Source of the DNA: Eledone cirrhosa
Lineage: Eukaryota
Direction of reading: 5' to 3'
NCBI GenBank assembly: GCA_964016885.1
Contig: OZ024745.1
Coordinates: forward strand, 80,104,001-80,168,000
Length of the DNA: 64,000 nucleotides
The notes beneath the pieces are model-generated. The model was not told the DNA's origin. It ran no database searches and saw nothing but the letters and a program-made list of their open reading frames with translations. Position numbers and translations under genes: made by a program. Within the stretch, counting starts at the first letter, position 1. Each line of letters begins with the position of its first letter. Below, in pieces: positions 46,918-51,418 of this stretch.

Positions 46918-46951
46918 CATAGAATATACATACATGAATATATATATATAT

Positions 46952-48213
46952 ACATAAACTGGAAACATTCTCCCAAACTTGTAGAAAACTTATAATGAAA
47001 CAATTGTTTGGAAAGAGAGATATACTTTAACTTTAATTATATCTCATAAAATAATACAACTGGTTTTTCCACATTATACATATTGTTAGCACCCCAAACA
47101 CTTAAATTGGGTTTATATTTTAATATAACCTAATGTTTGTTGAGTGAGATGGTTACCAGTCAGCGTTTAGCTTTAAACTATCTCTGTTATTGTATTAAAT
47201 ATTTACTCTTGATTGGCCAGAGGTGTTTATTTCCAGGTACCTTATGAATTTGACTTTCCGTATTTATTACTGTTGTGAAATATTGTGGCTTTTTTTGGTT
47301 GTAACTTCTGTTTTTTAGCCTAGGAAAATATATATATATGCCTACGTATATAATTACATGCATATATGTATTTATTTTCTTTTATTAATTGAGTTCTATA
47401 CACGAGGAATTAATATTGGTTTTGAAATAACTAATTAACCCGCATGTGTTTTATATTTTACTCTTAATAATTCGGCCGGAGAATTATATTCCCATTTGCC
47501 CTTTATAGCATAACTTTCTGCATTTACTGCGGTTATGAGAAGCGATTCTTATTCGGGTACAACCTCTGTTTTAGCCTAAGAAAATATCTATATGCATGTG
47601 TAATTTATACAAGCATATATTTATTTTTTTATTTTTTTTATTTTCAATTGAGTTCTTAAACACGTTGGATCGATAATGTTTTCAAAAAAACTAATTAACC
47701 CGCGTGTATATTATTTTTTTTCCTCATTTCGTGGATCGTGGGTTGTCTCCCCTTCCCGCTTCGTGTCGCTATGATACTTCCTCAGTCAAAAACTGCTGGA
47801 ATTTCAAATTTGGCGGTCATTCGAGGTGAGAGAGAGCAACTTTACGGACATGATTTTTGACAGCGGTAAGAAATTGTTTTCTTATATCAATGTTTAATGG
47901 GCTTCCACTAATGATTTATAAGTGCCCACCTAAATATATTCTTACATGAATATATATTAGGCTTCTACATAAACTGGAAACATTCTCCCAAACTTGTAGA
48001 AAACTTATAATGAAACAATTGTTTGGAAAGAGAGATATACTTTAACTTTAATTATATCTCATAAAATAATACAACTGGTTTTTCCACATTATACATATTG
48101 TTAGCACCCCAAACACTTAAATTGGGTTTATATTTTAATATAACCTAATGTTTGTTGAGTGAGATGGTTACCAGTCAGAGTTTAGCTTTAAACTATCTCT
48201 TATTGTATTAAAT
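46952..48213. repeat. About 245-bp direct repeats (46952-47200 and 47967-48213) around a unique core; possibly tandem pseudo-LTR
   Basis: ACATAAACTGGAAACATTCTCCC...TTGTATTAAATA occurs twice; degenerate hammerhead core on the minus strand near 47757-47789. Confidence 0.75.
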
Positions 48214-48944
48214 AATTATATATATACATATATATATACATACATGTCTATATATATATATATATACAGGTTAATATAAATTAATATATTTGATAAACAC
48301 AAATACCAACATATTCATGTTTGTATTGTAAATGACCAAGTTAGCTAGATTGAAATATACTAATAATAATATTACAGTTTGCCTATCTTGACTTATGATA
48401 ATAAATCAACAAAAACAAATCGTGTTGGCAATGGCCGTGGTGCTTGGACAAATTTAAATTACAAAATCAAACCTGTTCCGTAGACAGGTTTAAACCTTAA
48501 AATCCAAATATGTTTTGAATAATGAAAAAGTGGAAGAAATACCGCATTTTGATCTCCTCAGCAAGCACTATAAAAATTGGTATGTTCCACTTCAAAATAT
48601 TTAGAAAGACTGTTTAGCGCACGAGGTAATTTCACGCGGTTATCCAGTGTCTAGCTAGTCTCATACACGTGCTGCTAGAAATAACAGCCGTTTGTATGGG
48701 GCTAAATTCAGCTCAATGAAGGAGCAGTGATAAATCAATAATAATGAGTTCAAATCTCAGGCAGTCTTTTACAATGAAATAGCTAAAGTCATACGAGTTT
48801 TCAAGGAAACACACTTCATCTATTCTCCAGAGAGAATGACTCACGTTCTATGCAAATTAGTCTGCCCACTACTGATTTTCATAGAAAAAGCATATAACGA
48901 TATGTGCTTTTACAATTCTCCAGAGAAGCCGGAAAGATAGGTAT

Positions 48945-48987
48945 ATATTGCTGATGAGATGTAATAACATCGAAACTAGTCCAATAT
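48945..48987 (+). ncRNA. Type-I minimal hammerhead ribozyme
   Basis: ATATTG-CTGATGA-GATGT aata ACATC-GAAA-CTAG-TC-CAATAT; all core bases present; predicted cleavage after GUC (48981). Confidence 0.88.
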
Positions 48988-49235
48988 TCCTGTCTGGCTC
49001 TCTGGTGAATAGAGGAAGTGTGTTTCCTTGAAAACTCGTATGACTTTAAAACCCGGTTCGTCTGTTTGTTTACATACAGACTAGCTGGACACTCACTGTA
49101 AAGTGTCTAGTGAAAAACTCGGTACATGTACATATGTATACATATGTGTATTTATATGCATACTAATACTTCCGTATACATATATAGATGTACACTTTAA
49201 CTTAATTGTTTATACATATATACATATATATATAC

Positions 49236-49266
<31 letters not shown>

Positions 49267-49313
49267 CATATATATATATACATATATATATACATATATA
49301 TATATACATATAC

Positions 49314-49347
<34 letters not shown>

Positions 49348-49367
49348 ATATATATACATATATATAT

Positions 49368-51418
49368 GGACCAGCAGTGTTAGTCGAGGGGAGTATAATA
49401 AGTAAGGCAATCAAGGATATGAAGACGGGTAAGGCGGCTGGGCCTTCGGAAATAGTTGCTGAGATGCTAAAGGCATCTGGCACGGTGGGACACACCATGG
49501 TCACCCGCATAGTTAACCAAGTCGTACAGAATGGGGTTGTTCCGAAGGACTGGCATAGCAGCATCATCGTTAACTGTTATAAGGGTAAAGGAGACGCCCT
49601 AGATAGGAGTAACTATAGAGGCATTAAATTAATCGACCAGGTCATGAAGGTCACGGAAAAAGTAATAGCGCAACTAATCAGAGAGAGAATTGACCTAGAT
49701 GAAATGCAGTTCGGGTTTGTGTCAGGCAAAAGTACCACAGACGCTCTTTTCATTGTACGACAACTACAGGAGAAGTACCTAGCTAAAGGTAAACCCCTCT
49801 ACTTAGCTTTTGTCGACTTGGAGAAAGCCTTCGACAGAGTCCCCCGCTCCATTATCTGGTGGGCTCTTAGAAAACTAGGCGTTGACGAATGGCTTGTGAG
49901 GGCTATACAAGCCATGTATAAAGAAACAGTCAGCAAGGTTAGAATTAACAACGAATATAGTGAAGAGTTTAGCGTAAAAGTTGGCGTCCATCAGGGCTCT
50001 GTTCTCAGCCCCCTACTATTTATTATTGCCCTTCAGGCTATAACAGAGGAGTTCAAGACAGGCTGCCCATAGGAACTCCTATACGCAGACGACCTGACAC
50101 TCATAGCGGAATCAATGGCCGAGCTAGAGAAGAAATTCCAAACATGGAAGCACGGCCTAGAATCAAAAGGCCTTAAAATTAACCTGGCTAAGACAAAAGT
50201 TCTAGTTTATAGGAAAGAAAATAAGGCAGCGGTCCCTTCTGGGAAATGGTCGTGCTCGGTGTGTAGGAAAGGCGTAGGTAGAAACTCCATTTTATGTCCT
50301 AAATGCAAAGTATGGGTGCATAAAAGATGTAGTGGGATCACAGGTAAGCTAACTAAGAACATAGATTTTACATGTGGCCGGTGCTCCGGTGCAATAAGTA
50401 GCAGCAAGTGCCCACAAAATACTAGCTCTTTCAATTGCGCAAAGGGTTCTATAGAAATAGTGGACAGTTTCCGTTATCTGGGTGATAAAATCAGCAGTGG
50501 GGGAGGGTGCTCTGAAAGTACCGTAGCTAGAGTCAGAACTGGTTGGAAAAAGTTCAGAGAGCTTATACCACTATTAGCTGCTAAAGGGTTCTCCCTAAAA
50601 ATGAAAGGCAGGTTGTACGATGCCTGCATACGAACAGCAATGTTGCATGGCAGTGAGACCTGGGCATTGTGTACAGAGGATATACGCAGACTAGAGAGGA
50701 ACGAAGCTTGCATGCTCCGCTGGATGTGTAACAGTAATATACGTGAACGGCAAAGCATAAACGAAATAAGGAAAAAATTAAAAATAAAAGGGATCAGATG
50801 TTGTTTACTCGAGAGAAGGCTACATTGGTATGGACACGTGATGCGCATGAAAGTCGATAGCTGTATAACAAATTGCAGGGCAATAAAGATAGACGGTAGC
50901 CACGGAGTAGGCAGACCGAGAAAAACCTGGGACGAGCTGATAAACTCCGACCTCACACACTTACTCCTCTCCAAGACAATGTCACTGGACCGAGACCTTT
51001 GGCGGTACTCAGTAACAGAGAAGACCCGCCTTACCTAAATACATAGTAAAACATACTACAGCCAGTAGGCATCTCTAACAAAATACCCCCCACCCCCGTC
51101 CCACCACCCCCACCCCGTTCTATGTAAAGTTGTGTTGGTGCCACACCATCCAGGCCGAAACAAATGAGATCGTGTAGGTGTCACGACAAAAAAACACACA
51201 GTCCACGCTGTAAATATGGCCGTATAGGCAACACGGTAAAAACCTCCCAGACCCACACTGTAAATGTGGTTGGTGTTAGGAAGGGCATCCAACTGTAGAA
51301 AACCTGCCAGACAGTCCTATGCGAGCAAGACAATCACTCTTGCCTCAAGTGGGACTACCCCCGTCCAAACCCATGCAAGCGTGGAACACGGACGTTAAAC
51401 GTTGATGATGATGATGAT
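49368..51418 (+). mobile_element. Young RTE LINE, 5'-truncated, one nonsense change (TGG to TAG at 50070-50072)
   Basis: Complete RT, PHD and C-terminus; (GAT)n tail. A UTR-only copy lies at 52253-52555. Confidence 0.95.

Follow-up and report, generated by a model that had tools for sequence, protein, structure and literature searches.

A truncated, inverted non-LTR retrozyme copy in Eledone cirrhosa, likely inserted by Penelope-like machinery

The window, a stretch of 64,000 nucleotides of the Eledone cirrhosa genome, harbours at 48784..49048 a 265-bp segment whose ends resemble those of a MITE and whose interior carries a hammerhead ribozyme. This combination raises the question of whether the segment is a DNA transposon holding a ribozyme or part of a retroelement that only looks like one. 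The favoured answer, with a probability of about 0.85, is that the locus represents a truncated, inverted copy of family A, a non-LTR retrozyme, likely inserted by the reverse transcriptase (RT) and GIY-YIG endonuclease of a Penelope-like element (PLE) of the Neptune type, a label that rests on a CxxxxCxxC motif and the preference for (TA)n. The class of element is known and the locus itself is damaged; its value lies in family A.

Two inverted arms of 51 bp, as described in an earlier sequence-only reading of the locus, match at 49 of 51 positions, with mismatches at 48818 and 48826 (Table 1). The same reading took the arms for the boundaries of a 265-bp element, and this delimitation does not hold. 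To the right of the second arm, family A continues uninterrupted as far as 49212 as part of a 470-bp unit, and to the left of 48787 lie 523 bp of another repeat, family B, up to the TA tract at 48265. The unit of family A is numbered from the first base after the cleavage site. The stub is truncated at both ends and joined to family B via 1-4 nt of microhomology, while the forward arm spans the cleavage site and terminates at the short fixed 3' end of family A. The stub overlaps the forward arm in unit bases and thereby generates false terminal inverted repeats (TIRs).

Table 1. Parts of the composite insertion in the window (positions count from the first base of the window)
Feature	Position	Strand	Description
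(TA)n-type microsatellite	48216..48264	none	left end of the composite insertion; from sequence
Family B arm	48265..48787	-	bases 27-547 of the 547-bp tandem unit; stops at the short fixed 3' end of B
Predicted family B type I hammerhead	48440..48568	-	CUGAGGA at 48561-48555; long stems II and III; predicted cleavage after 48447
Inverted family A stub	48784..48834	-	unit bases 17-67 past the cleavage site; left 'TIR' of the sequence-only reading
Family A forward arm	48835..49212	+	unit bases 325-470, then 1-231; 5'-truncated
Family A type I hammerhead	48935..48995	+	predicted cleavage after 48981
Right 'TIR' of the sequence-only reading	48998..49048	+	internal bases 17-67 of the forward arm, no terminus
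(TA)n-type microsatellite	49213..49366	none	adjoins the fixed 3' end of family A; from sequence

Read as a class II MITE of the Tc1/mariner type with a TA target, the segment would possess genuine 51-bp TIRs, and its hammerhead would be captured or incidental. The identity of the arms at 49 of 51 positions and the TA at the start and end of the segment suit this reading, as do seven other loci among the top matches that align to the 265-bp query from end to end. In those seven loci, however, the arms extend for hundreds of bases to the fixed ends of family A; the right flank in the window is unbroken family A, arm lengths vary at every locus, and the readable target duplications measure 9-16 nt. 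The left junction, between A and B, was found just twice in 3.0 Gb, once in the window and once on contig C1714, whose copy has a 1.8-kb flank 99.7% identical to the window; by the same count, the 51-bp length of the inverted arm is unique to the window locus. Because the junction occurs once, apart from a duplicate contig, the MITE look is accidental. The MITE reading is given virtually no credence.

When compared with its own genome (3.0 Gb), the 265-bp query yielded 1,039 candidates, and the best 40 mostly match bases 52-265 at ~99%. A MITE family was rejected, as no 265-bp family of many copies bounded by conserved TIRs was found. A MITE-type target duplication of fixed length was rejected as well, the flanks of the 265 bp being repeat sequence and not duplicated host DNA. 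The broader proposal of the sequence-only reading, a non-coding, ribozyme-bearing retroelement tied to PLEs instead of a DNA MITE, fits what was found.

Several further features were noted in and around the composite insertion. To its left lies a 283-bp direct repeat (96%) at 46924-47205 and 47936-48218, the copies being ~1,015 bp apart. Just past the right TA tract, 49367-51038 (+) holds a reverse transcriptase fragment of the LINE type, presumably of an RTE-like clade, that is truncated at its 5' end and interrupted by one stop; it has several 67-70% relatives within the window. Within the forward arm, the octamer ATGCAAAT at 48850-48857 is part of a block conserved in families A, A' and one of two C copies; by analogy with amphibian satellite 2, it may serve as an snRNA-type promoter, a role for which a literature search gave no confirmation. 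A 151-base contig of depth 2 from run X5 (organism C) matches window positions 48900-49051 with 2 differences and 1 gap and stems either from a relative with family A or from stray DNA.

Family A is organised as 470-bp units (466-470 bp in subfamilies) in head-to-tail tandem, each with one type I hammerhead. The unit is low in GC and non-coding, the longest Met-started frame comprising 84 aa, and its circular fold is predicted at -149.6 kcal/mol against -98.2 +/- 4.6 kcal/mol for 40 shuffles. The genome contains 1,317 exact 43-nt hammerhead cores (reversed-pattern control 0). The forward arm of the window is 99.7% identical to its nearest other locus, L007.

The insertions of family A share a characteristic anatomy. 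A typical copy consists of two 5'-truncated arms placed head to head; the point at which the arms meet is variable, and the outer ends are fixed and adjoin (TA)n. The two outer ends lie at unit positions 226-232 (short end) and 297-301 (long end), ~70 nt apart on the RNA. Exact long-end junctions (unit base ~300 followed by (TA)n) number 2,120, with 0 in the reversed-pattern control, and exact short-end junctions (unit base ~226-231 followed by (TA)n) number 1,774, with 1 in the control. Both patterns required TA; AT-rich or (TA)n targets also occur in the locus set picked by hammerhead, which carried no such requirement. Among the first 100 long ends listed, an outward-facing short end lies within <=15 kb for 61, compared with 1/100 for inward-facing short ends, 2/100 for long-long pairs and 0/89 for short-short pairs; the copies with paired ends span 79 to 14,670 bp (median 1,017). 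The other 39/100 long ends are without an exact short-end partner, and many of the unpaired short ends have a long arm that is either a variant or tiny. When 60 loci were chosen by their long end, mostly of a subfamily 84-90% identical to that of the window, 46 showed an inverted short end within the 3.5 kb considered. No direct terminal repeats surround a unique interior at the mapped loci, i.e. there is no LTR layout.

Inner junctions are scattered over the unit and are mostly blunt or show an overlap of a few bases, and arm lengths differ from locus to locus. Twin priming of the classical kind, in which the two arms would copy separate parts of a single linear RNA, was rejected because the arms usually share unit bases and the inner ends are not clustered beside the start of the other arm. 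Direct target duplications of 9, 13 and 16 nt were found at 3/15 two-arm loci, those lying outside simple repeats; these lengths include bases shared with the element ends, and the other 12/15 loci, in simple repeats, are unreadable in this respect. Three insertions of less than 100 bp (L203, L265 and L267) retain short and long ends head to head, and L243 is a single-arm insertion of family A between direct duplications of ~45 bp.

Arms span the cleavage site, and the two-arm insertion at L139 reaches 15 units; arrays comprise 2 to more than 60 units. The units and both arms of an insertion share one subfamily haplotype, and arms within one locus differ less from each other (mean 3.1 differences) than arms across loci do (mean of medians 8.4, from 33 loci); L136 and L160 depart from this pattern. 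Conversion of one arm by the other could equally produce this likeness, which is therefore not taken as proof of a single template. Among the unit variants within arrays, some changes are private and others periodic, a mixture compatible with rolling-circle copying as well as with multimeric templates.

Such arrays bring up another origin: family A may be a satellite spread at the DNA level by unequal crossing over, extrachromosomal circles or microsatellite break repair, with the hammerhead as a passenger. The very long arrays at L138/L140/L159, where more than 60 units are seen, and the periodic sharing of variants among array units, as predicted by later duplication, speak for it. Against it stand the conservation and covariation of the hammerhead, the target duplications, and the combination of fixed outer ends ~70 nt apart, variable inner ends and ~2,000 dispersed insertions, which is a PLE signature and unlike random breakpoints. 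Spread as a satellite is hence regarded as improbable. The array at L138, L140 and L159 (G000:C1:95,620,986 to beyond 95,658,800) is at least 38 kb long and begins in (TA)n with an ordinary short 3' end; it is a candidate source locus or a candidate satellite born of one insertion.

The family A hammerhead itself is well defined. Stem I (48945-50/48982-87) has 6 bp and is extended via an internal loop into a second helix. The core consists of CUGAUGA (48951-57) and GAAA (48972-75), stem II has 5 bp and an AAUA loop, and stem III is a single A-U pair capped by a palindromic CUAG tetraloop. The core, the lengths of stems I and II, the palindromic stem III and the predicted cleavage site are those given by the sequence-only reading; its term 'minimal' was not sustained, as stem I extends past the internal loop. 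The extended stem I with its internal loop and the 4-nt loop II are retained across families and set this hammerhead apart from the minimal PLE type. A match to the Rfam model HH9 at 48933-49003 reached 34.9 bits (E 4.5e-6 in 6 kb, 6.5e-7 in 851 bases), which is below the Rfam gathering score of 52. Rfam matches to miRNA, snoRNA and sRNA models nearby were discarded as low-complexity and far below the gathering scores.

Conservation was assessed in 59 loci picked independently of the hammerhead, differences being departures from the column majority; counts from another set, in which an exact hammerhead match had guided part of the selection, were set aside in favour of this one. Differences amount to 2/528 in the core, 3/593 in stem I, 0/192 in loop II and 0/192 in the tetraloop, compared with 400/17,550 outside the hammerhead in the same loci. 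Stem II shows 32/480 differences, all from one pair, which is T-A in 33 loci, A-T in 18 and mixed in none. When all hammerhead positions are compared with the rest (37/2,070 vs 400/17,550), Fisher's test is not significant (p = 0.18), because the compensatory swap in stem II is counted as 32 differences.

Families related to family A at ~70%, with units of 430-510 bp, were found at L089:7718-9901, L127:2469-3800, L071, L010, L161 and L180. These paralogous families carry the same CUAG-loop hammerhead, with GUA or GUU as the cleavage triplet and a U-U mismatch at the base of stem II. The hammerhead stems covary across them. The alignment behind this statement comprises 13 variants from 51 distinct 61-mers, one per visible subfamily or variant; the variants are related to one another, and single copies with apparently private changes as well as junction artefacts are omitted, a choice that favours a clean result. 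Stem I is 100% paired in all 13 variants, with 3/6 pairs changed on both sides. Stem II is 86% paired with 3/5 doubly changed pairs, and its first pair is unpaired in 8/13 variants. Neither the covariation score of 0.40 nor the paired fraction was matched in any of 500 shuffles (0/500), and slid controls were 39-50% paired; the number of doubly changed pairs was equalled by 220/500 shuffles.

In the single-sequence minimum-free-energy fold, the active hammerhead is not formed (-7.6 kcal/mol for the target vs -16.3 kcal/mol), and the core-proximal pairs of stem I have a mean predicted pairing probability of 0.3. According to the folding prediction, two hammerhead copies can pair through the CUAG palindrome. 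We infer ribozyme activity of family A from the conservation, the covariation and the likeness to the axolotl ribozyme HHR_Amex1. Family A displays every retrozyme feature testable here and, judged by its sequence, is an animal non-LTR retrozyme.

Family A encodes no protein, and the PLEs of the same genome are candidates for its mobilisation. A genome-wide GIY-YIG search gave 10,595 candidates; the best 150 were scored and 84 loci (44 + 40) were examined. PLE proteins with long ORFs contain RT and GIY-YIG domains in 4/5 cases and RT alone in 1 (E 0.01), and they possess a CxxxxCxxC linker, a feature of the Neptune and Nematis clades (PMC8557442). PLE insertions in this genome consist of inverted arms ending in (TA)n, one arm being longer by 62, 34, 33 or up to 56 nt. 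Among the hallmarks described for PLEs are inverted copies truncated at the 5' end and a tail on one side only (PMC8557442). A purified PLE protein cuts and extends both strands of AT-rich DNA, two internal start sites of that protein on the RNA define the tail, and hammerhead cleavage is dispensable for PLE insertion (all PMC11167929). Young PLE families with long frames are located at L077:4809-7622(-), L079:1775-5062(+), L082, L084 and L086-L088; near their 3' ends, these PLEs have hammerhead-like motifs with a CCGG palindrome and a non-canonical 5' core.

The same end anatomy permits a different view, namely that family A is the pseudo-LTR at the 3' end of an autonomous PLE and that its loci are ordinary 5'-truncated PLE insertions. 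The ends of family A have the same anatomy as those of PLEs, Xenopus retrozymes resemble PLE pseudo-LTRs (10.64898/2026.07.22.740005), and the GIY-YIG places checked are 84 of the 150 scored, so this view has something in its favour. Across ~135 insertions, however, long arms extend upstream solely as further 470-bp units and never into a coding region, and the unit has no long ORF. An RT or GIY-YIG ORF is absent from the unit, and none lies 5' of any arm in ~135 distinct insertions (duplicates removed). DNA similarity between the family A unit and PLEs was found in none of the 84 GIY-YIG loci out of 10,595 candidates, where matches to family A were only nested copies of A or its paralogues. 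A pseudo-LTR origin is thus a slim prospect, and as no PLE resembling the unit in sequence was found in the 84 loci, we infer the partner of the retrozyme.

The best single pointer to an enzyme common to family A and a PLE is locus L263. Here, a long-end arm of family A is followed by a 40-nt inverted A stub and then directly by 2.46 kb of the RT-EN region of a PLE; the PLE part is 92-96% identical to L084 and stops at the short 3' end of the PLE. A deletion between neighbouring insertions could also explain this arrangement.

The same ambiguity applies to the A/B junction in the window. Family B has a 547-bp tandem unit with 1,921 candidates in the genome, of which the best 40 were scored, and elsewhere (L037-L046) it shows two arms, an 84-nt tail and (TA)n. 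Its predicted hammerhead had no Rfam match; stem I changes in pairs among relatives of 71-76% (L087, L163), and the window copy has an A at the core position G12 (48516). A stub of family A that runs into a foreign repeat was observed at L263 (PLE), L280, L274, L032 and L012 in the ~135 insertions mapped. The flank of L280, together with L080, L086, L153, L160 and L208, represents a further high-copy, TA-inserting, two-arm repeat; the L280-flank repeat has matches in 49 loci and an apparent tail of ~80 nt.

In the window, the A stub and the B arm may have been joined within one insertion by template switching of the reverse transcriptase, or a later deletion may have fused two neighbouring insertions. 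The recurrence of the layout at the five loci named above is in favour of a switch, as is the fact that L263 obeys the rule of one short plus one long end, and a two-arm insertion of A with two short ends is known from L282. Against a switch, the composite insertion in the window has a short end on either outer side, one of A and one of B, contrary to the usual short-plus-long rule, and the B part appears older than the A part (97.7% to its nearest sampled relative vs 99.7%). Moreover, the families nest in one another's TA tracts, so that deletions would yield similar products, and at L032 there are 5 nt of microhomology and the foreign piece is duplicated locally. Because the window has two short ends and its B part is the more diverged one, we lean slightly to a deletion, and a switch is given somewhat less than an even chance. 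No piece spanning the A/B junction or the whole stretch was present among the contigs of four sequencing runs, and since the duplicate on C1714 belongs to the same assembly as the window, the junction is without independent confirmation.

For the preferred reading, a retrozyme inserted by PLE machinery, the following course of events may be envisaged. Multi-unit copies of family A would be transcribed, and their hammerheads would release RNA of unit length, probably aided by the pairing of two palindromic CUAG loops. A host ligase may then circularise the unit RNA, as suggested by the work on other retrozymes (PMC7229834). If it acts like the purified enzyme of PMC11167929, the PLE protein would nick an AT-rich target, in most cases (TA)n, on both strands. 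cDNA synthesis would start at two fixed internal sites of the RNA, ~226-232 and 297-301 nt past the cleavage site; the two cDNAs would halt at variable points and be joined head to head, which is the anatomy observed. Since arms run through the cleavage site and may comprise many units, their template would have been circular or an uncleaved multimer. In the window, 51 bp of the second arm would be left, fused to family B by neighbour deletion or template switch.

More generally, several unrelated hammerhead retrozyme families could be copied in trans by the Neptune-type PLE protein. This protein would prime both target strands, using two fixed sites inside a circular RNA, and would switch between RNAs during an insertion. 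We put this extension forward tentatively and rate its chances slightly below even. If it is true, family A would carry in its 70-nt tail region a portable cis-signal for PLE reverse transcription that works independently of sequence, and chimeras such as L263 would directly name the partner enzyme of an animal retrozyme.

PLEs have been termed 'a strong candidate' for the mover of animal retrozymes (PMC7229834), and their role is backed by co-occurrence and phylogeny (10.64898/2026.07.22.740005); in the text of these two reports, the PLE partner is proposed from co-occurrence and pseudo-LTR similarity alone. Family A is an additional member of the known animal non-LTR retrozymes, with unusually clear genomic support for a Penelope-type mobilisation. 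The ~2,000 young insertions with the signature of two start sites, the near-intact PLE ORFs and the retrozyme-PLE chimera offer a ready test: they supply an RNA of 470 nt, the two start sites predicted on it and an enzyme as candidate, and the assay has been published for another PLE (PMC11167929). The locus also calls for caution in annotation, since short inverted stubs of the PLE type can mimic MITEs.

Among the known systems, the MITEs at issue, which we take to be Tc1/mariner-derived, resemble the window locus only, in being short, non-coding and bounded by inverted repeats flanked by TA. Unlike them, family A has no fixed termini, no fixed 2-bp duplication and no family of 265-bp copies.

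The EN+ PLEs of the Neptune and Nematis groups share with family A the 5' truncation, the partial tandems and the inverted 5'-truncated copy, as well as the one-ended tail, the (TA)n targets, a hammerhead upstream of the 3' end and a variable target duplication (PMC8557442, PMC11167929). In contrast to them, family A codes for no protein and has no sequence in common with the sampled PLEs. Its tail of ~70 nt exceeds the 30-40 bp described in PMC8557442 and PMC11167929 and the 33-62 nt of the PLEs in this genome. Non-autonomous Chlamys PLEs, e.g. MRC1 of Chlamydomonas, form multicopy head-to-tail insertions by means of PLE machinery and resemble family A in this; in contrast to it, their 3'-end sequence is generally also that of an autonomous family, and the clade they belong to is described as being without canonical hammerheads (PMC8557442).

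The closest counterparts are the animal non-LTR retrozymes of Cervera & de la Pena 2020 (PMC7229834) and Li, Clavereau & Pollet 2026 (10.64898/2026.07.22.740005). Like family A, these consist of non-coding tandem units that are low in GC and each contain a single type I hammerhead; they range from partial monomers to long arrays, have a self-paired circular fold and occur alongside PLEs; their target duplications exceed 4 bp, and those readable in family A measure 9, 13 and 16 nt. The 470-nt unit is larger than the 150-450 bp given in PMC7229834 but falls within the 51-972 bp of 10.64898/2026.07.22.740005. For published retrozymes, expression, circles and cleavage have been demonstrated, whereas for family A they are predictions from genomic sequence; Li et al. 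report cleavage in 1/9 predicted Xenopus retrozymes (10.64898/2026.07.22.740005). The words 'inverted' and 'tail' are not used for retrozymes in the main texts of PMC7229834 and 10.64898/2026.07.22.740005, and a literature search largely of freely accessible papers found no publication on template switching by retrozymes or on inverted retrozyme insertions.

Of the individual ribozymes, axolotl HHR_Amex1 and that of newt satellite 2 are most similar, with a one-pair helix III, a palindromic tetraloop and the same anatomy of loops 1 and 2 (PMC7229834). The family A hammerhead differs from HHR_Amex1 in sequence and host and has CUAG as its loop. HHR_Amex1 is weak alone and efficient as a dimer (PMC7229834), and by analogy, the family A hammerhead may likewise cleave as a dimer.
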